A stretch of DNA of 31,390 bases, from positions 1 through 31,390 of the forward strand of contig CAYLYR010000001.1 of the NCBI GenBank assembly GCA_964387835.1, written 5' to 3'. Positions 8,193 through 28,969 of the stretch are shown piece after piece. The position numbers were made by a program, and so were the translations under genes. The DNA comes from an uncultured Melioribacter sp. (GTDB lineage Bacteria > Bacteroidota > Ignavibacteria > Ignavibacteriales > Melioribacteraceae). Position 1 is the stretch's first letter. Each line of letters opens with the position of its first letter. Under the pieces are notes generated by a model, which ran no database searches, was not told the DNA's origin, and was given only the letters and a program-made list of their open reading frames with translations.

Positions 8193-11100
8193 ATGAATTT
8201 CACGCAAATTGCAGAATCACTCTCGGCAGGAATATCTTCTTTTAATGATGCGGCATTAAAGGAACTTGTTGAGAATATTAACGATCATCTCGCTTTGGTT
8301 AGCGGAGAGAATTATTCCACAGTTAATTTTGAAGAACCGGAAAAACTATTTACACTTCTCGTCGGGAACGGATTTTCTGAAAAATTTGCAGAATTGATTG
8401 AGCCTGATGATTTTTTTAATTTCGGCAATTTTTTGATTAACTCAAAAAATGATACGCCAACTTTAAAGAACGTTATTCATCTTTATTTAGATATTTTCAG
8501 ACGTTCGGAATTATTAGTCCGAATCTACAATGAAAGAAGATGGGATAAACTTATTGAAGCGTTAATTCGTAAAAGCAATTACCGAGTTAGGGAATTGTTT
8601 TATCAGCGTAGTAATTTTTATAAGAACAAAACGTTATTTAATATTCTTGAAGGTGAGAAAGTAACTCCCTATTCGTGGAAAGAAACGGAGAAGAATGTTG
8701 AGCGCTATGCTTCGGCGCTAAAATCATTGCTTTCTGAATTTTATGAAGATGTAAAAGTAGCGTTTCTTCTCGAGAACAGTCTTAAAATGGCTTGGCTTGA
8801 TTTGGCTTGCTTAACTAACGGAATCGTTAATATTATGATTCCCGGAAATGCGGTAGCCGAGCATATTGAGTTTATTCTTAATCAAGCGGAAGCTAAAGTG
8901 ATTTTTGTTGCCAATGAAAATCAATTGGCTAAAGTAAAATCGGTTAAGCATAATCTCCCGAACTTAAAATGGGTGGTTTTCCTTTCAGGCAGTTCTATTG
9001 AAGAAGATGTAATAACCTTTGAGGAGTTTTTATCATACGCGGAAAAATACGATGCCGAAAAAGATTATTACAAAACAAAGGAATATAATACTGATTCCCT
9101 CGCAACAATAATGTACACGTCCGGCACTACCGGTGAGCCGAAAGGAATTGAGTTTTCATATATGAACATTGTGTTTAAGCGGTTTGCGCGCGCGATGGCG
9201 ATTCCTCAAATAAACGATAAAGACAGATATTTAAGTTATCTTCCACTGTTCCATACATTCGGACGTTACTTGGAACTGATGGGAAGTGTTTTTTGGGGAG
9301 CGGAATATTCTTTCATGGAAAATCCTTCCGTGGAGACGATGATTGAAAACATGAATCTCATCAAGCCGACAATTTTTATTAGTATCCCTAAAAAGTGGAT
9401 TCAACTCTTCGAGCGAATTAACGAACTTGTTGATATTGCAGTTGACGACGAAGAAGAAATCAGAACGGCAATCGGGAAAGTTACCGGCGGAGAACTGAAA
9501 TTCGGCCTTTCCGCTGCCGGCTATTTGCCTCCCGATATTTTTATGTTTTTCCAGCAATACGGAGTAAATCTTATGAGCGGTTTCGGCATGACCGAAGCAA
9601 CCGGCGGAATTACGATGACCCCGATTGGAGAATATTATGAAAATTCTCTCGGTAAAGCGCTTCCGGGAATCGAACTGAAATTAGCCGATGACGGTGAGTT
9701 GTTAATCCGCGGAGCTTACGTAACAATCGGTTATTATAAAAATAAAGAAAACACTTTTGATGCCGACGGCTGGCTGCCTACAGGCGATATTATGAAGATG
9801 GACGAAAACGGTTTTATTGAAATAATCGACCGAAAAAAAGAAATATATAAAAACATCAAAGGTGAAACAATAGCTCCGCAAAAAATCGAAAACCTTTTCC
9901 GCGACTTCGATTTTGTTAAGCAGGTTTTTCTTGTAGGGGACCACAAACTTTTTAACACTGTTCTGATTTATCCCAACTATGATTCGGAATCGTTACTGAA
10001 AAAAAACTATTCCCAAGAGGAAATGAGAGATATTTTTTCTTCGGTAGTAGTAACTGTTAATAAGTTTTTAGCTCCTTTCGAAAGGATAATTGATTTCCGA
10101 ATTATCGAACGTCCTTTCACCGCAGAAGAAGGAGAGCTTACTCCCAAAGGAACGTATAAGCGACGCGTGATTGAAAAGAATTTTGATTCCGTAATAAACG
10201 AGATGTACGTTAAGCAATATATCGAGTTAAAAAGTAAAACTGTGAATGTTAGAGTTCCGAATTGGTTTTTACGGGAGAAAGGGAAATTAAGCGACGACAT
10301 CTATTTTGTCGATGATAAAATTAAAATTGCCGATGAAGAAATCGAGCTTCTTGTGAAGAGAGTCGGGGAGAAACAATTTCAAATCGGTGATTTTATTTAT
10401 GATATTACTTCGCATCGAATCGATTTGCAGCCTTTTCTAACAAACCCGATTTACTGGATTGGAAATAAAGCATTATTCGATTTTTGCGGCGAATCCATTT
10501 TTCAGTGGTTTCGCAACAGAGAACCTGAAAAAAATATTGCATTTAACAGAGTTGCCGAAAGAATTGAGATTAACTCAGCTGACGTGGAAACAATAAAAAA
10601 ACTTCACCTCGGAGGCGAGAAATCGCTTTACGGATTGAACCTCGCAGCGTTTCTGATTCAATCCGAAGATGAAAAAGAATCTCTCGGAGCTGCGAATTAT
10701 CTTAAGTTTTTAAGCTCCGATTCCACGCTGCCGATTTATAAAATTGTTGCCGATTTAATCAAACGACCGCAGTTGACCAAGCATAAATCGGTAAGACGTG
10801 AAATGCTGAAAACCGCTATTCATATTTGTAAAAACAGTCGTTTGGATTGGCTGCTTGAAAAATACTTTATGATAGATTACGATATACTCGATTCGGAAAT
10901 TTCACGCGCATTAATTGAAAGGAAGGCAAAAGATATTCTCGGAATTATTGAAAGACTGCTTAATAACATTCTTCATGATTTCTCCGGAACCGAGCTTAGG
11001 TTTACTCCGATTCCGGATTTGTTTGCTTTTCTAAATCAGTATGTTGAGCTTCATCCGACGAGTTACAGGACAATCAGAAGAATTTTAGTTCAGTATAAAC

Positions 11101-12944
11101 TTCAATCGGAAAATCCCGCTGTTTCCGAAGCGGCAAGCGAAACGAGAAATAAAATCAGACTTGGCTTCAGAAAGTGGCTCGGCACAAATCAGAAAGTTGC
11201 CGTTGATGTTGAGACCGGAGACGAATATACTTGGGAGGAGGTAGTTGTTTACGAGGAAAACATTGAGCCTGCCGATTTACAAAGGATAAATAAAGCTCTT
11301 GTTGAAACTCCCCTTATTCGTGAGGCTATTTTCTTCTTCTCACAAGGAACGGTTCTTCGTCTTGATGATATTCTGCCTTCGGGAATTTGGATTAGTTTTT
11401 ACAAGAAGTTTTCCACTCATACAACTTATCGCGTCTCAGTGCAAACGCGCTTTCACGGTTCGTATAATTTTACAATAAATTTGAATGAAACTCTTTCTCC
11501 CGAAAAAGTTACTTTGGAAAGCGATTGGCTTATTATTGCATGCTCGGCTGTTTCCGGACAGAAGCTGACTAACAAGTTCGGCGGTTATTGGGAAAAATAT
11601 GAACTTTGGACGGAAGAATACAATCCTCAGGAAAACATCGGGCATTACTTGGAAAGGATGTACAAACATCCCGACGAAAAAAAGAACGAGTTGGTTTATC
11701 ATATTTGGAGGTTTTTTGTTTGGAATGCTGCAACGGCTTCGTTAAACTTTATTAAATTGTCAAAGTATAAATTGCAGTTGGCAAATTACTCTCCCGATAA
11801 TTTTATTATTCCCAAGCATGATTACCAAGTAGGCACGAGGTTGGTTTCGATTGAAAATAGAGTCCCGTACAACTCGGCGCTTCATTTTCTCAGTGAATTT
11901 TATAACGGGTTTGTCGCGGATTCCGTAAATAAATATCCTTTCCTTAAAAGAGATTCGATATGGAACCAAATTTTTTCGGGTATAATTTCCGCACTTGGTG
12001 AAGAAGAAGGAGTCGAATATTTAAGCAAATTTAAAAATCAGCTCGGCGGCAGTGCGGATTTCCCCGATAGAGAAAATGCGCTGCAAAGGCTGGATTCATT
12101 CCTTACCGACATCTCGGAGGGAGTTTTCATCTCCAAAAGATTATTCTTTGCAATAAATAGATTTAGGCGTTGGCTTAACTTAAATGAAGACGCATCGATA
12201 GAAGCCCAAGCTTCGATGCTTAATGAACTTTACTCGACGTACAGTCTTAACGAGTTGGAGCGGCAATTACCGGAAACAAGAATTAAATTTTATTTTGAAA
12301 CGTGTTATCAAAATAGTTCCGATAAAGTTAAGGGAGAATTTAAAAAGATAATCAAAGAGTTTCATAATCGTAAAATAAAGAGGAAAGAACTTCTCGTTAT
12401 GCTTTCGGAAATTAAAGCCAAGTTCAATTTGTCGGAAAGAGAGGAATATTTTCTGACAAGGATTAGTTATTCGCATTTGCGTCCCGAGGATTCGGCTCAA
12501 ATAATGAAAATCGGAGCCGGAGGACACGAGAAGGAAAATCTTATTGTGGAATTTTTTGATTCGGACGGCAACCCGTTTGTTATTAGGCGTCCCGTTACTC
12601 CCAAAGAAATATCGCGCTTACACCGTATGTTTCTTGATGCAAATCTAATGGTGAATTTTAATTCGGAACATCAATTCCTTGTTGCCGTTTCATCACGCGG
12701 TTTTATTATCGGCGGACTTTTTTATACAACCGTTGATGATAAAAGAGTTCACATGGATAAAATTGTTGTTGCCGATCCTTTCCGCCGAAAGGGAATAAGC
12801 GATATTCTGATGAAGGAGTTTTTTAACAGAATGAAAAACGAACACTATGAATATGTAACTACCGGGTTTTTCCGTCCGGAGTATTTTTATAAGTTCGGTT
12901 TTAAGGTTGAACGGAAGTATTCGGGATTGGCTAAAAAGTTGTAG
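8193..12944 (+). CDS. 1583-aa multidomain protein: AMP-binding (long-chain acyl-CoA synthetase-like) domain, helical region, putative degenerate kinase fold, C-terminal GNAT acyltransferase
   Basis: SD AGGAG at 8184-8188. Adenylation motifs MYTSGTTGEPKG (9111-9146), YLPLFH, GFGMTE, TGD, IIDRKKE. GNAT motif A IVVADPFRRKGISDILM and motif B YFYKFGF at the C-terminus. One continuous frame. Confidence 0.85.
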   Translation: MNFTQIAESLSAGISSFNDAALKELVENINDHLALVSGENYSTVNFEEPEKLFTLLVGNGFSEKFAELIEPDDFFNFGNFLINSKNDTPTLKNVIHLYLDIFRRSELLVRIYNERRWDKLIEALIRKSNYRVRELFYQRSNFYKNKTLFNILEGEKVTPYSWKETEKNVERYASALKSLLSEFYEDVKVAFLLENSLKMAWLDLACLTNGIVNIMIPGNAVAEHIEFILNQAEAKVIFVANENQLAKVKSVKHNLPNLKWVVFLSGSSIEEDVITFEEFLSYAEKYDAEKDYYKTKEYNTDSLATIMYTSGTTGEPKGIEFSYMNIVFKRFARAMAIPQINDKDRYLSYLPLFHTFGRYLELMGSVFWGAEYSFMENPSVETMIENMNLIKPTIFISIPKKWIQLFERINELVDIAVDDEEEIRTAIGKVTGGELKFGLSAAGYLPPDIFMFFQQYGVNLMSGFGMTEATGGITMTPIGEYYENSLGKALPGIELKLADDGELLIRGAYVTIGYYKNKENTFDADGWLPTGDIMKMDENGFIEIIDRKKEIYKNIKGETIAPQKIENLFRDFDFVKQVFLVGDHKLFNTVLIYPNYDSESLLKKNYSQEEMRDIFSSVVVTVNKFLAPFERIIDFRIIERPFTAEEGELTPKGTYKRRVIEKNFDSVINEMYVKQYIELKSKTVNVRVPNWFLREKGKLSDDIYFVDDKIKIADEEIELLVKRVGEKQFQIGDFIYDITSHRIDLQPFLTNPIYWIGNKALFDFCGESIFQWFRNREPEKNIAFNRVAERIEINSADVETIKKLHLGGEKSLYGLNLAAFLIQSEDEKESLGAANYLKFLSSDSTLPIYKIVADLIKRPQLTKHKSVRREMLKTAIHICKNSRLDWLLEKYFMIDYDILDSEISRALIERKAKDILGIIERLLNNILHDFSGTELRFTPIPDLFAFLNQYVELHPTSYRTIRRILVQYKLQSENPAVSEAASETRNKIRLGFRKWLGTNQKVAVDVETGDEYTWEEVVVYEENIEPADLQRINKALVETPLIREAIFFFSQGTVLRLDDILPSGIWISFYKKFSTHTTYRVSVQTRFHGSYNFTINLNETLSPEKVTLESDWLIIACSAVSGQKLTNKFGGYWEKYELWTEEYNPQENIGHYLERMYKHPDEKKNELVYHIWRFFVWNAATASLNFIKLSKYKLQLANYSPDNFIIPKHDYQVGTRLVSIENRVPYNSALHFLSEFYNGFVADSVNKYPFLKRDSIWNQIFSGIISALGEEEGVEYLSKFKNQLGGSADFPDRENALQRLDSFLTDISEGVFISKRLFFAINRFRRWLNLNEDASIEAQASMLNELYSTYSLNELERQLPETRIKFYFETCYQNSSDKVKGEFKKIIKEFHNRKIKRKELLVMLSEIKAKFNLSEREEYFLTRISYSHLRPEDSAQIMKIGAGGHEKENLIVEFFDSDGNPFVIRRPVTPKEISRLHRMFLDANLMVNFNSEHQFLVAVSSRGFIIGGLFYTTVDDKRVHMDKIVVADPFRRKGISDILMKEFFNRMKNEHYEYVTTGFFRPEYFYKFGFKVERKYSGLAKKL

Positions 12945-13140: not shown

Positions 13141-13210
13141 CTCGCAGAGTTCTGTGAACAATTCTTTTATTAGAATTATTATTATTTTTGTAATAAAAGG
13201 GGGAAATAGT

Positions 13211-13657
13211 ATGTCAAGTTACACACAAATACTTTACCAAATTATATTCTCTACAAAAAATAGAGAAAAAACGCTTATCGAAAAAAACAGAAATGAACTT
13301 TTCAATTATATCTGGGGTGTAATAAAAAACAAGAAATCTCACCTTTACCGGATAAATGGAGTGGAGGATCATATTCACATATTGACACATTTGCATCCGA
13401 CGATAGCTTTATCTGATTTTATTAAAGATATAAAAGTTTCAAGTTCGGTTATGATAAAAGAAAAAAATCTTTTCCCGAGATTTCACGGATGGCAGATTGG
13501 TTACGGAGCATTTACATATTCAATAGATTCAAAGAAAAAGTTAATTAAATATATTATGAATCAACCGGAACATCATAAAAAGGAAACATTTATTGAGGAG
13601 TTTAAGAGAATATTGGATGAGTTTCATGTAAAATATGACGATAAATATTTGTTATAA
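13211..13657 (+). CDS. tnpA: IS200/IS605-family Y1 (HUH) transposase, REP-associated tyrosine transposase-like (start placed at ATG 13211)
   Basis: IIFSTKNR, HUH motif EDHIHIL, WQIGYGAFTYS, catalytic-Tyr motif YIMNQPEHH; purine-rich SD-like AAAGGGGGA before 13211; no tnpB. Confidence 0.9.
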   Translation: MSSYTQILYQIIFSTKNREKTLIEKNRNELFNYIWGVIKNKKSHLYRINGVEDHIHILTHLHPTIALSDFIKDIKVSSSVMIKEKNLFPRFHGWQIGYGAFTYSIDSKKKLIKYIMNQPEHHKKETFIEEFKRILDEFHVKYDDKYLL

Positions 13658-27139: not shown

Positions 27140-28969
27140 CTATCTCATTTCCAAATTATTTTTGTATAAGCTTAACTCTTCAAGTATTTTGTTAAAATAA
27201 TCTTGTAAGTTAGTTAAATCGTTTAAGGCGCTTTTATATGAATTCTTTAACGATTCTTTCTGCTCGCTGAACATTTTGCGGTAATATTCAATGCCGGAAG
27301 AAAGATTGTTTGTGAATGTATCGAAATATTTAAATTGTTTTTCAGTGAAAAGAGGAGATGCATCGTCGATTTTTTTCTTAAGGAAATCGAGATAAAGTTT
27401 CAACTCTTTAATGAACATATTAGGACGATTCTTTGTGTTTAAAATATTTATGCGTCCGTAAATATGATCTGCCATTTGTTTCAGCGTGAACTCACCTGAA
27501 TAATAAGCCATATTTGGTCCGGGACAAACCGAAACCGCCGGTCCCTCCATTTTGTAATCGAGATTGTTCAAAACCAAAACCGAGTTGGATAGACCATTGC
27601 AGAGACATTCTTTCGCTATTATTTTGTTATATTCACTTTTGTAATCCGCAGGCGGAAGATTTTTCTCTTTTAATTCGGTAAGTTTTAAGTTTATATATTG
27701 TGATGAAGCCGTGCAAATCGGAATTTCGGTAAACTCCGTATTAAAGGTTAAATATTTTTTCGGACAAGAGCTTCCCGGTTTACCTTCTTTTGCAAGTTCA
27801 ATGCGTTCAATATCTTTCGAACTTCCGCGGACATTATTAAATGGAACGCCGAGCGGTGAAGCATCCGAGAGATATAAATCATCTTCGGTTGCATCGCTTA
27901 AAAGTTTCATCGTCTCTTCATCAATACTTGTAGCTTCAGGAACAAGAAGGAAAGGAGTTCCCCAGCCAACAGAATCGATATTGTAATTATTAAGTAAAAA
28001 TCTATGTTCCTCTCCGGTGCCGACTCCTCCCTGAGCGGTAATTTTCAGCTCCGGCATCTCATTTGGAACTTGCTTCCCTTTTCTTTCTAATGCGGACTTA
28101 AAAATCTCGTAAGTGGTTTTGTGTAAAGTTTCCCTTTGTTTCTTAAACTCTTCAAGGATTGGTCCCAGCAAATAACCGTCGGAGGCAAAAGCATGCCCGC
28201 CGCAGTTCAGTCCCGATTCAATGCGATATTCCGAAACCCAAAGACCTTTCTTTGCGAAAAATTTTCCTTGAATTATTGCCGAGCGATAGTCGCTTACCTT
28301 AATGATAATTTTCTTTTTGATTCTTCCGAGTGCATCCGGATAGAAATCGGAAAAGTTCTCCATGTAAGTAAATAATCTTGGATTCATTCCCGCGGATAAA
28401 ACCACAGAGGATTCCAAATCGCTTTTGGCGTAGCCTCTGATGGCGGCGTGAGCATCATTTTGTTCAATCGGCAGTTGCTTTTTCCCTTTGTAATTAGGAC
28501 CGTCAACTTTCGTCATTATGTTTACATCAATACTTCCTATTGACAAATTATCCTGAAGCCATTTTTTTACTTCTTTTATATTGTCTGAATTTGTTTTAAC
28601 TATTCGCTCCCATTGTTTGCTAAGTTCGGAAGCGGTTGGAAGCAATTCGAAATATTTTTCGATTTCACTATAGCCATTGGAAACGGACTCAATTAACATA
28701 TCAAACTTTTCATGGACTATTTCATTTACCAAATTAAGGTAGGCGGTTATTCGTTCAGCCCTGAAGTCCTCTCTTTTGGGAGTAATCGGCTCGAAGTGTT
28801 TGTTAAATTTTTCCGCATAAAATTTTCTCATCTTCTCAACGAGATTATGTTCAAATATTGACATCACAGAAGCAATGCCGAGATGAGCAATTTTAATCGG
28901 GGAATCAATTGTGTAGCTCAATCCCATAACGGGAATATGAAATGTATGTTGTGATTTTTTGTTTGTCAT
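27140..28969 (-). CDS. 609-aa protein with a nitronate-monooxygenase/FabK/FabX-like FMN TIM-barrel signature and a C-terminal Cys cluster
   Basis: Colinear motifs IPVMG, DVNIM, VLSAGMNP, IKVSDYRSA, IESGLNCGGH, ITAQGGVG, SVGWGTPFL, SPLGVPF; then CPKK, ICTAS, CLCNGL, VCPG. Confidence 0.6.
   Translation of the reverse strand: MTNKKSQHTFHIPVMGLSYTIDSPIKIAHLGIASVMSIFEHNLVEKMRKFYAEKFNKHFEPITPKREDFRAERITAYLNLVNEIVHEKFDMLIESVSNGYSEIEKYFELLPTASELSKQWERIVKTNSDNIKEVKKWLQDNLSIGSIDVNIMTKVDGPNYKGKKQLPIEQNDAHAAIRGYAKSDLESSVVLSAGMNPRLFTYMENFSDFYPDALGRIKKKIIIKVSDYRSAIIQGKFFAKKGLWVSEYRIESGLNCGGHAFASDGYLLGPILEEFKKQRETLHKTTYEIFKSALERKGKQVPNEMPELKITAQGGVGTGEEHRFLLNNYNIDSVGWGTPFLLVPEATSIDEETMKLLSDATEDDLYLSDASPLGVPFNNVRGSSKDIERIELAKEGKPGSSCPKKYLTFNTEFTEIPICTASSQYINLKLTELKEKNLPPADYKSEYNKIIAKECLCNGLSNSVLVLNNLDYKMEGPAVSVCPGPNMAYYSGEFTLKQMADHIYGRINILNTKNRPNMFIKELKLYLDFLKKKIDDASPLFTEKQFKYFDTFTNNLSSGIEYYRKMFSEQKESLKNSYKSALNDLTNLQDYFNKILEELSLYKNNLEMR

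Follow-up and report, generated by a model that had tools for sequence, protein, structure and literature searches.

A Predicted Protein-Kinase-like Fold Lacking the Canonical Catalytic Motifs, Located between an Acyl-CoA Synthetase and a GNAT Domain in a Bacterial Protein

1. Introduction

The bacterial GNAT lysine acetyltransferases include large multidomain proteins in which a C-terminal GNAT domain follows a metabolite-sensing domain; the five types described comprise NDP-forming synthetase, cAMP, ACT, NADP-Rossmann, GNAT-only, and tandem GNAT organisations, and in types I–III, a sensor domain lies beside the GNAT (PMC8556138). A GNAT domain also occurs in natural fusion with a kinase fold, as in AAC(6')-APH(2''), the kinase of which is APH(2''). 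The APH-type kinases are bacterial protein-kinase-like (PKL) folds whose ligands are small molecules carrying an amine or a hydroxyl group. Kinase folds with atypical activity are also known, as in Bud32, Rio, SelO, and SidJ-type proteins, of which Bud32/PRPK belongs to KEOPS and the Rio proteins are ribosome-biogenesis factors.

None of the five GNAT types has an AMP-forming synthetase or a kinase-like domain (PMC8556138), and literature searches returned no described synthetase–pseudokinase–GNAT fusion. The window analysed here (the whole stretch of 31,390 nucleotides from an uncultured Melioribacter sp., contig CAYLYR010000001.1) contains a gene for a protein that appears to combine all three. 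The initial annotation, made by eye from the sequence, had proposed that a kinase-like fold with dead catalytic motifs is hidden at 11379–11860, and the motif strings on which this proposal was based are indeed in frame there, inside an open reading frame (ORF) of 1583 aa.

2. Architecture of the Protein

The gene is a single ORF (8193–12944 on the forward strand, as are all of the features below) that begins with ATG and encodes, in succession, a synthetase, a middle module, and a GNAT. Pfam recognises an AMP-forming acyl-CoA synthetase, then around 770 aa without a Pfam family, and then the GNAT, and full-length homologs of around 1550–1625 aa have an identical architecture. Conservation was assessed in a family alignment of 93 sequences (the close members) and in 62 divergent representatives.

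The synthetase module (aa 130–680; 8580–10232) is of the long-chain/FadD11 type: Pfam finds AMP-binding at aa 155–515 (E 4e-58) and AMP-binding_C_3 at aa 555–674, while the NCBIfam matches are long-chain-fatty-acid-CoA ligase and FadD11, and the relatives in the PDB are the A-domains of carboxylic acid reductases and the luciferases. The adenylation motifs TSGTTGEPKG, GMTE, and PTGD can be recognised by eye, and with these motifs kept, the synthetase looks active. At the other end, the GNAT acyltransferase domain (aa 1434–1583; 12492–12941), which contains the acyl-CoA motif RRKGIS, is highly conserved and matches Acetyltransf_1, Acetyltransf_7, and Acetyltransf_10. The solved sequence nearest to it is that of Tetrahymena GCN5 (E 0.003); GCN5 is its closest likeness, and a specificity for protein lysines is putative. 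The synthetase and the GNAT are the two best-conserved parts of the protein.

The middle module starts with a small beta-rich domain plus linker (aa 681–794; 10233–10574) to which Pfam gave no match and whose strands, at residues 6–65 and 103–108 of an AF2 model of aa 680–1460, are predicted with a pLDDT of around 90. Next comes a region of alpha-helical repeats (aa 795–1000; 10575–11192), with some ten helices by DSSP at model residues 116–317, which is, after the N-terminal extension, the part of the protein with the lowest conservation (mean top-residue frequency 0.43, against 0.40 for the extension). The alignment and the models then reveal a conserved acidic beta-hairpin (aa 1001–1020; 11193–11252) with the consensus D-x-E-T-G-E-E-Y-x-W-x-D-V; it forms two short strands in both AF2 models, and its residues E1007, E1011, Y1012, and W1014 are invariant in the 93 sequences, but the hairpin is frequently absent from the aligned part of the divergent representatives. 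It is followed by the PKL domain proper (aa 1021–1305; 11253–12107), the limits of which come from the VIA-align ranges, and by a C-terminal helical bundle (aa 1306–1433; 12108–12491), with helices at residues 316–426 of the other AF2 model.

Within the middle module, the residues whose conservation reaches furthest sit outside the kinase-like core, in this helical bundle; they are R1323, W1327, Y1350, R1363, and R1423, and among the divergent representatives, W1327 is present in 62/62, Y1350 in 60/62, R1363 in 58/62, and R1323 in 54/62. Nearly all of the aligned ranges of the rigid VIA-align kinase matches leave the bundle out. On the basis of this conservation, the functional centre may be elsewhere than in the kinase-like core. 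The pTM of 0.84 over 781 aa takes in the PKL domain along with the helical repeats before it and the helical bundle after it, and the model predicts that they form one rigid module carrying the GNAT. A complex prediction for the PKL-plus-helical module (aa 1000–1433) and the GNAT (aa 1434–1583) gave a median score of 0.29, against a mark of 0.32, which speaks neither for nor against a contact between them.

3. The Kinase-like Fold

Two AF2 models were made from the 93-sequence family-only alignment with no templates; their pLDDT values were 90.4 and 90.0, their pTM values 0.84 and 0.85, and the order of the elements was identical in both. According to DSSP, the models have a bilobal PKL fold with its elements in the canonical order: a five-stranded N-lobe sheet accompanied by helix alphaC, then a hinge, then a helical C-lobe that includes a beta6–beta9 mini-sheet. 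The N-lobe (aa 1060–1148; 11370–11636) is made up of beta1 (aa 1060–1072) and beta2 (aa 1076–1085), which together read IWISFYKK..YRVSVQ, then beta3 (SYNFTINLN, aa 1090–1098; 11460–11486), alphaC (PEKVTLESDWL, aa 1103–1116), beta4 (KFGGY, aa 1129–1133), and beta5 (ELWTE, aa 1138–1142) before the hinge. In the C-lobe, alphaD (aa 1149–1158) and a long alphaE (aa 1162–1189) precede the short strands beta6 (LQL), beta7 (FI), and beta8 (RL). The strings had thus been assigned to the right elements by eye and in the right order, and the bilobal fold, whose absence was to have told against the proposal, is predicted by AF2 and recovered by Foldseek and VIA-align. The interval 11379–11860 (aa 1063–1222) corresponds to the N-lobe and the first half of the C-lobe, and the domain as a whole is wider.

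An exhaustive VIA-align search, which is independent of Foldseek, returned PKL folds for all 50 top chains, with a best Z of 11.4 (Bud32) and 96 chains with a Z of at least 8; the background stated for this method is a best Z of, typically, 7–8 when a model has no true match. In a second VIA-align comparison, Bud32 (4ww7_A) was aligned over 221/237 residues with Z 12.8 and rmsd 4.2, and APH, homoserine kinase, PsiK, choline kinase, and Rio had Z values of 10–12.6; the aligned ranges were 22–306 in one model and 344–616 in the second comparison. Foldseek against the PDB gave 353 matches with E<=0.001, the 50 matches listed all being kinases or pseudokinases, and against the AFDB and the Atlas, it likewise returned kinases. 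The global TM-scores of the Foldseek matches to kinases are modest (0.25–0.6). With Foldseek listing kinases and VIA-align giving PKL folds above its stated background, the resemblance exceeds chance, and aa 1021–1305 are confidently predicted to adopt a genuine protein-kinase-like fold of minimal Bud32/Rio/APH size without an activation segment.

4. Conservation and Loss of Kinase Motifs

The motif losses were counted per alignment column, the kinase elements having been assigned via DSSP and topology. The turn between beta1 and beta2 (aa 1073–1075) consists of three variable residues, and GxGxxG is absent in the 93 sequences. Strand beta3 lacks the ATP-anchoring Lys, as had been claimed: column 1096 is N in 57 and H in 23 of the 93 sequences, column 1094 is V, A, or T, and no column within the strand has a conserved Lys or Arg. 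Just past the strand, position 1099 is K or R in 61/93 sequences and Glu in the 1583-aa protein. Two arginines, R1080 in beta2 (92/93 close and 54/62 divergent) and R1086 (90/93), are conserved. The Glu recognised by eye as alphaC-like, E1109, is kept in 90/93 close members but not in the divergent ones, where E occurs in only 26 and T in 23 of the 62.

The segment that resembles the catalytic loop (LANYSPDN; 11778–11801) has the family consensus L-x-D-x-x-P-x-N in the alignment. Its position 1198, that of the HRD Asp, is Asn in the 1583-aa protein, which agrees with the reported loss of the catalytic Asp, but Asp is restored in 58/93 homologs (24 others have N and 7 have E); the position toggles between D and N even among the closest homologs, which are 69–84% identical, and it is D in 17/62 divergent representatives. 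Given these swaps among close relatives and the low count in divergent ones, the carboxylate at 1198 is free of catalytic constraint. The catalytic-loop Asn, N1203, for which we infer positional equivalence from topology, is kept in 77/93 and 49/62 sequences.

A family-specific loop that was not remarked on in the first reading of the sequence (HDYQVG here, consensus HDYQTG; 11817–11834) lies, according to DSSP, in an extended beta7–beta8 hairpin, with strands at 1204–1205 and 1216–1217 on either side. D1210 and Y1211 are present in 93/93 sequences, H1209 in 88/93, Q1212 in 85/93, and G1214 in 87/93; among the divergent representatives, D occurs in 55/62 and Y or F in 57/62. After beta8, the DFG position falls in VSI (11844–11852) if the four-strand DSSP pattern is read against canonical kinase topology, and the position of the Asp is then S1219 (S in 88 and T in 5 of the 93; S in 52/62). 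By this topology, DFG is lost, as had been claimed, but a low-confidence hhalign alignment (probability <1%) sets the invariant D1210 opposite the Asp of the APH motif IDF; if that alignment were right, the metal-binding Asp would be retained. There is a small chance that the invariant HDY(Q)TG loop leaves room for non-canonical chemistry.

In canonical topology, the cleft is lined by beta2, alphaC, the catalytic loop, and the DFG position, and it is there that the conserved polar residues lie. The conservation of the PKL domain is intermediate, below that of the enzymatic domains and above that of the helical linker, as is expected of a domain that is non-catalytic yet functional.

5. Sequence Searches and the Family

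The kinase resemblance is undetectable by sequence. A Pfam search of the 1583-aa protein at E<=1 found no Pkinase (PF00069), APH (PF01636), RIO1 (PF01163), ABC1 (PF03109), Kdo (PF06293), or DUF6206 (PF19709), and no PKL family is among the 25 Pfam families that had matches in the largest numbers of the 93 members. No kinase family was matched by the protein in NCBIfam, or by phmmer and a profile hmmsearch against PDB sequences. Detection through APH profiles, which had been suggested with the initial annotation, failed, with hhalign against three APH alignments (19 APH genes from related genomes) giving a probability of <1%. As sequence profiles detect nothing, the domain represents an orphan PKL family, undetectable by sequence statistics.

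An identity with DUF6206 was considered and rejected: the Atlas language-model score was 0.95, with 173–176 shared features, but hhalign, using one real DUF6206 gene and then 120 homologs, gave only 0.4% and 0.09%. PF19709 was not found in the protein's own genome, and the literature searches returned nothing relevant on DUF6206.

Nearly all of the 362 representative matches have the domain at the same position in proteins of around 1550 aa, so the family is confined to one setting, with an AMP-forming acyl-CoA synthetase ahead of the domain and a GCN5-like GNAT after it. Variant architectures lacking the synthetase were not supported: the nine shorter representatives examined with Pfam fit N-truncated fragments, five of which start inside the synthetase domain. 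Members of the family, which is of FCB type, occur in the Ignavibacteriales and in Calditrichota-like, Acidobacteriota, Fidelibacterota, and Marinimicrobia-type metagenomic lineages. The gene for the synthetase–PKL–GNAT protein often has a citrate synthase gene as its neighbour.

6. What Might the Domain Do?

The reading that we favour, with a probability of roughly 60%, is that the PKL domain is a pseudokinase, that is, a non-catalytic binding and regulatory module placed before the GNAT. The structural core of this reading agrees with the initial annotation, with the fold present and the canonical machinery missing. The Gly-rich loop and the beta3 Lys are absent family-wide, as is, by the topological assignment, the Asp of DFG; together with the lack of constraint on the HRD Asp, this makes standard ATP-dependent phosphotransfer very unlikely. 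A family-specific polar set (R1080, R1086, E1109, N1203, S1219, and R1223, plus the HDY hairpin) would occupy the interlobe cleft, a location deduced from canonical kinase topology. The putative ligand of the cleft could be phosphate-bearing (an adenine nucleotide or CoA/acyl-CoA) or could be an acyl acceptor, and its binding would couple the activity of the GNAT to the metabolic state or to the synthetase in cis. The earlier suggestion, that the domain may be an allosteric nucleotide sensor coupling the synthetase to the GNAT, draws on the domain order and on the likeness to the type III GNAT proteins.

Could the domain instead be an architectural spacer, a relic of the fold that fixes the geometry between synthetase and GNAT (or serves oligomerisation) and whose cleft has no ligand? 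The loss of every nucleotide-anchoring motif is consistent with this, as are the lower conservation of the PKL domain compared with both enzymatic domains, the prediction of the 781-aa middle region as one rigid body with a pTM of 0.84, and the replacement of the alphaC Glu in divergent members. Against a mere spacer, polar residues that do not belong to the core persist on the cleft-lining elements (R1080, N1203, S1219, D1210, and Y1211), more than such a role would call for; these might, however, be interdomain contacts, and we regard the spacer as an unlikely explanation rather than a negligible one. An active atypical enzyme is a still more doubtful proposition. Such an enzyme would use a nucleotide via the beta2 Arg, standing in for the beta3 Lys, with N1203 and D1210 as metal ligands, and would phosphorylate, AMPylate, or hydrolyse ATP. 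The beta2 Arg recalls the displaced Lys of WNK kinases, and R1080, the invariant HDY, and N1203 could support non-canonical catalysis. The nearest structural matches include the atypical ATPases/kinases Bud32 and Rio, D1210 is invariant and N1203 conserved, Asp occupies the HRD position in 62% of the close homologs, and the single hhalign alignment discussed above pairs D..N and xDY with D....N and IDF of APH.

Several observations argue against such an enzyme: the domain has neither Gly-rich loop nor beta3 Lys, D, N, and E are interchangeable at the HRD position, even among near-identical relatives, and DSSP sets HDY in the beta7–beta8 hairpin loop with a Ser at the DFG position; moreover, a spacing of seven residues from N to D is probably too short for a canonical beta7–beta8 hairpin. 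It is highly improbable that the kinase fold itself is an artefact of the modelling or that alpha/beta elements have come to resemble it by chance. The failure of the sequence-profile methods to find a kinase family and the modest global TM-scores would fit an artefact; they have to be set against two confident models built from family sequences alone, an exhaustive search in which the top 50 are only PKL folds with Z values up to 11.4 over a background of 7–8, and the almost complete coverage of Bud32, with all of the canonical elements in order.

Within the pseudokinase reading, a more detailed and decidedly tentative scheme, which we think unlikely to be right in full, is that the cleft takes up CoA/acyl-CoA or else an adenine nucleotide and thereby gates a GCN5-like protein acyltransferase that is fed by the synthetase in cis. 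The protein would then be a regulated bacterial protein acylase of a sixth type, one that supplies itself, tied functionally to citrate synthase and acetyl-CoA flux in the Ignavibacteria and related FCB lineages. Since proteins of around 1600 aa are conserved across these lineages and citrate synthase is often adjacent, the family may point to a control step in acyl-CoA metabolism that has yet to be characterised. A bacterial family undetectable by sequence would be added to the kinase-fold superfamily, and a pseudokinase between an adenylate-forming enzyme and an acetyltransferase would be an arrangement outside the current five-type classification of bacterial GNAT proteins; it would also offer a clean case of the repurposing of a kinase cleft following the loss of Lys, Asp, and DFG.

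7. Comparison with Known Systems

The best structural match is Bud32/PRPK of KEOPS (Z 11.4–12.8, rmsd ~4.2 Å, 218–221 of ~237 residues), and Rio1 and Rio2 follow with Z 10–11.3. The PKL domain has in common with these proteins its minimal size, the helices N-terminal of the N-lobe, and a very short link from the DFG position to the next helix, with no activation segment. However, there is no detectable sequence relationship, the PKL domain is missing the Gly-rich loop and beta3 Lys that Bud32/Rio possess and, by topology, also their DFG Asp, and it has in addition the invariant HDYQTG hairpin and the C-terminal helical bundle. Whereas Bud32 and Rio are KEOPS or ribosome-biogenesis factors, the PKL domain is part of a 1583-aa synthetase–GNAT protein; a Bud32/PRPK would be recognised by its intact ATPase site and by Kae1/KEOPS as its partner, in place of which the PKL domain is fused to a synthetase and a GNAT and lacks the catalytic residues.

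APH, choline kinase, homoserine kinase, MTR kinase, and PsiK (APH, PF01636) are tied with Bud32 (Z 10–12.6; Foldseek probability 1.0), but the APH pattern H-x-D-x-x-x-x-N plus I-D-F/E is not conserved in the PKL family. AAC(6')-APH(2'') is itself among the matches (4ork, Z 9.2); set against it, the order here is kinase-like domain and then GNAT, with a synthetase added. A likeness to PI3K/PI4K, in which a helical solenoid precedes the kinase fold in the same order as in the middle module, was also considered, the top Foldseek matches of the 781-aa model being Vps34 and p110 (E 2.7e-5, ~600–700 aligned columns). This reading was not adopted: the TM-scores are 0.15–0.3 with an rmsd of ~20 Å, these proteins are neither among the 50 best Z on re-alignment nor at the top of the exhaustive search, and the DRH and DFG motifs of PI3K are absent from the PKL domain.

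The pseudokinases PAN3, IRAK3, and RNase L have structures among the Foldseek matches. They have no sequence homology to the PKL family, which is bacterial, belongs to the FCB group, and has an adenylate-forming synthetase and a GNAT as partners. The principle may nevertheless be common to all of them, namely, a catalytically dead kinase fold that acts as a scaffold or as a ligand-binding regulator of a neighbouring catalytic domain. The module proposed here would also have its counterpart in the sensor domains found ahead of the GNAT in type I and type III bacterial acetyltransferases.

The Fold of the Middle Module

The region at 11379-11860 encodes residues 1063-1222 of a single ORF of 1583 amino acids (8193-12944, + strand). 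In this giant protein, Pfam and NCBIfam recognize an AMP-forming, long-chain/FadD11-type acyl-CoA synthetase (aa 155-675) and a GNAT domain (about aa 1468-1571), but no family in aa 680-1460. The synthetase keeps its adenylation motifs, as read directly from the sequence, and is apparently intact; the nearest solved sequence to the GNAT domain is Tetrahymena GCN5 (E 0.003).

The initial annotation had read, by eye, a catalytically dead kinase-like fold in this region. All of the peptide strings that it quoted are present as written in the translation and, in two AlphaFold2 models made without templates from a family alignment of 93 sequences, each lies on the kinase element to which it had been assigned. 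Model 1 covers aa 680-1460 (pLDDT 90.4, pTM 0.84) and model 2 aa 1000-1460 (pLDDT 90.0, pTM 0.85), and the order of elements over the region is identical in both: three long strands (aa 1060-1072, 1076-1085, and 1090-1098; beta1-3), a helix (1103-1116; alphaC), two strands (1129-1133 and 1138-1142; beta4-5) followed by a short linker (the hinge), a helix (1149-1158; alphaD), a 28-residue helix (1162-1189; alphaE), and four short strands (1194-1196, 1204-1205, 1216-1217, and 1223-1225; beta6-9), after which come further helices (alphaF onwards). As modelled, this is the canonical order of elements of protein kinases.

A Foldseek search of the PDB gave 353 matches at E<=0.001, the best 50 of which are all kinases or pseudokinases; the matches listed include JAK2, FGFR2, PRPK, PAN3, PsiK, LegK4, and choline kinase. 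Using VIA-align, which is independent of Foldseek, on 48,161 chains, only kinase-like folds were found in the top 50, and 96 chains reached Z>=8, among them Bud32 (4ww5_A; Z 11.4, rmsd 4.3, 218 residues aligned), homoserine kinase (Z 11.1), amicoumacin kinase and an APH (Z 10.8), and YihE, NahK, choline kinase, and Rio1/2 (Z 9-10.5). Since such scores exceed the tool's own stated background (best Z 7-8), the kinase-like match of the predicted structure is well above chance. When the Foldseek matches were re-aligned to the larger model, Bud32 scored Z 12.8 (221 of 237 residues aligned), PsiK 12.6, and choline kinase 11.9. Shape searches of AFDB Swiss-Prot, AFDB clusters, and the ESM Atlas were likewise kinase-like, and neither the lack of a bilobal kinase fold nor a different confident fold was found with AlphaFold2, Foldseek, or VIA-align. 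Judged by the aligned ranges, the domain spans aa 1021-1305 and exceeds 11379-11860. A likeness to PI3Ks, which the larger model first matched because of its helical-then-kinase order, was lost on Z-score ranking.

Upstream of the kinase-like domain, model 1 has a small beta-rich domain (aa 681-794) and about ten helices forming helical repeats (aa 795-1000). This stretch (aa 681-1000; 10233-11192) is modelled confidently (pLDDT about 90) without a family assignment; fold searches of the large model were dominated by the kinase domain and not by this part. Directly before the kinase-like domain is a strongly conserved acidic beta-hairpin (aa 1001-1020; 11193-11252) with the consensus D-x-E-T-G-E-E-Y-x-W-x-D-V, four residues of which are invariant; in many divergent representatives, the part that aligns does not include it. 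Downstream, a C-terminal helical bundle (aa 1306-1433; 12108-12491) runs straight into the GNAT domain. Because the pTM of model 1 holds across all 781 residues, the model indicates that the middle module is one rigid body.

A Sequence Orphan

No kinase family in Pfam matches the giant protein or appears among the 25 families that match the largest numbers of the 93 members, and searches of PDB sequences with phmmer and with a profile in hmmsearch found no kinase relationship. A profile match to APH, a check proposed in the initial annotation, failed: hhalign against APH-family alignments (from 19 genes of related genomes) gave a probability below 1%. The kinase-like domain is a sequence orphan in that no sequence method detects its relationship to kinases. 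A protein language model gave DUF6206 as a lead (score 0.95), which hhalign against an actual gene of that family, together with 120 of its homologs, did not support (probability 0.4% and 0.09%). A DUF6206 (PF19709) gene on a stretch from another genome (L039:1348-2259) resembles by eye an intact small kinase fold, with a G-x-G-x-x-S loop, a V-L-K strand, D-x-x-x-S-N, and I-D-T; the family is uncharacterised.

Loss of the Catalytic Motifs

Residues were counted in the 93-sequence alignment and in 62 rows re-aligned to its profile (the giant protein itself and 61 more divergent full-length representatives), with columns putatively mapped to kinase elements from DSSP and canonical topology. The Gly-rich loop (1073-1075) is three variable residues without a glycine motif in the 93 sequences. 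At the position of the beta3 Lys (1094-1096), these sequences have [V/A/T]-[L/I/V]-[N57/H23], and 1096 has no majority residue in the 62 rows (N16, V13, K3); at 1099, just past beta3, a basic residue occurs in 61/93, with Glu in the window's protein. The alphaC Glu (E1109) is kept in 90/93 (E26, T23 in the 62 rows) and the catalytic-loop Asn (N1203) in 77/93 and 49/62. The putative DFG position, directly after beta8, reads V-S-I (1218-1220), S1219 being Ser in 88 and Thr in five of the 93 and conserved in 52/62.

The HRD Asp is replaced by Asn1198 in the giant protein. Homologs do restore Asp at this ANYSP position, and most of the 93 have it (D58, N24, E7), though it is unconserved (17 of the 62 divergent rows). 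Since Asp and Asn alternate among close homologs (Asp in one that is 84% identical, Asn, then Asp in the next two, and so on), the carboxylate is under no catalytic constraint. From the DFG position to the next helix there are only about ten residues, and, like Bud32 and Rio, the domain lacks an activation segment. The claim of dead catalytic motifs was well founded as regards the beta3 Lys and the HRD Asp and, on the DSSP mapping, the DFG Asp (Ser1219), and the domain is predicted to be a pseudokinase by the usual three-motif criterion.

Residues Conserved Instead

The strongest motif of the domain is P-x-H-D-Y-Q-T-G (aa 1207-1214), in which D1210 and Y1211 are invariant in the 93 sequences and D1210 is kept in 55/62. 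DSSP places it in an unusually long beta7-beta8 loop, whereas one low-confidence hhalign alignment puts D1210 opposite the Asp of the APH 'IDF'. The DSSP mapping is favoured over this metal-binding position as the more probable of the two, because the seven residues from N1203 to D1210 leave too little room for a canonical beta7-beta8 hairpin. Also conserved are R1080 on beta2 (92/93; 54/62), R1086, R1223, and G1130. The residues kept most widely in the whole middle module belong to the helical bundle just past the kinase core and outside the rigid kinase matches: W1327 (62/62), Y1350 (60/62), R1363 (58/62), R1323 (54/62), and R1423. By domain, mean top-residue frequency is 0.59 in the N-lobe and 0.50 in the C-lobe, intermediate between the helical repeats (0.43) and the synthetase (0.67-0.73) or GNAT domain (0.71), as expected for a domain that is probably functional and non-catalytic.

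Distribution and Genomic Context

About 100 close homologs of the middle region were found (28-85% identity over it), almost all of 1550-1625 aa with the same three Pfam matches; the names of their sources include Ignavibacteria, Melioribacteraceae, Chlorobi-group, Caldithrix, Acidobacteria, and Neomarinimicrobiota. With the profile of aa 1000-1460, only 362 of 1.84 billion cluster representatives matched (E<=0.001), and in essentially every one the match takes up the same place within an unchanged architecture; nine shorter ones, checked with Pfam, are consistent with N-truncated fragments, five starting inside the synthetase domain. Of 151 genomes sampled evenly across the window's phylum, six have the domain, all of them from the window's order. 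The family is therefore narrow and its architecture fixed. In the ESM Atlas, two clusters of hypothetical proteins of 226-230 aa, without a Pfam family, are very close to the kinase-like core (TM by row 0.87 and 0.79, rmsd 2.6-3.1) and may represent either free-standing forms of the family or fragments of its genes.

In the window, the giant gene has no evident operon partner: upstream lie the end of the dcw cluster (murC, ftsQ, ftsA, ftsZ) and a TPR histidine kinase, and directly downstream an IS200-like Y1 transposase ORF (13154-13657; PF01797, E 2e-22). A 609-aa ORF (27140-28969, - strand) has no Pfam match at E<=1e-5. Of 12 other loci, nine have a citrate synthase gene (PF00285) <=6.5 kb from the giant gene (L029:6296-7609, L030:6577-7884, L033:4532-5842, L035:7296-8600, L044:2562-3869, L042:1502-2824, L037:5736-7031, L034:1071-2366, and L031:12677-13741, - strand), a count that overstates independence, many of these genomes being interrelated. 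In most of the nine, the citrate synthase gene directly precedes the giant gene, in the same orientation; one distant lineage has the two genes side by side and convergent. No citrate synthase gene is present in the window, a same-genus genome (L036), or two divergent loci (L038, L043); one further locus is cut by the contig end. This adjacency suggests a functional link of the giant gene to acetyl/acyl-CoA metabolism.

Possible Function

That the kinase likeness is an artefact is scarcely credible given two independent fold searches, despite the silence of the sequence methods. A purely architectural role, which the rigidity of the module would suit, is unlikely. A non-canonical active enzyme, to which the invariant HDY motif might point, is quite improbable with the canonical catalytic set lost.

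We favour a regulatory or binding pseudokinase, with a probability of about 0.6. Fixed directly before the GNAT domain and after the synthetase, the domain would no longer transfer phosphate and would serve the GNAT domain, and possibly also the synthetase's mobile C-terminal subdomain, as a platform for binding and regulation. The conserved Arg/Glu/Asn/Ser/HDY set is a candidate binding site for the acceptor or for a ligand that bears phosphate (nucleotide or CoA/acyl-CoA). A role as an allosteric nucleotide sensor, suggested in the initial annotation, is likewise putative.

The kinase fold and the pseudokinase concept are already known. We found no description in the literature of the synthetase-pseudokinase-GNAT architecture, and the novelty lies in a sequence-orphan kinase-fold family that occurs in this architecture alone. 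Neither an AMP-forming synthetase nor a kinase fold is part of any of the five described types of bacterial acetyltransferase (PMC8556138). The proposed platform role would parallel that of the sensor domains of the type I-III enzymes.
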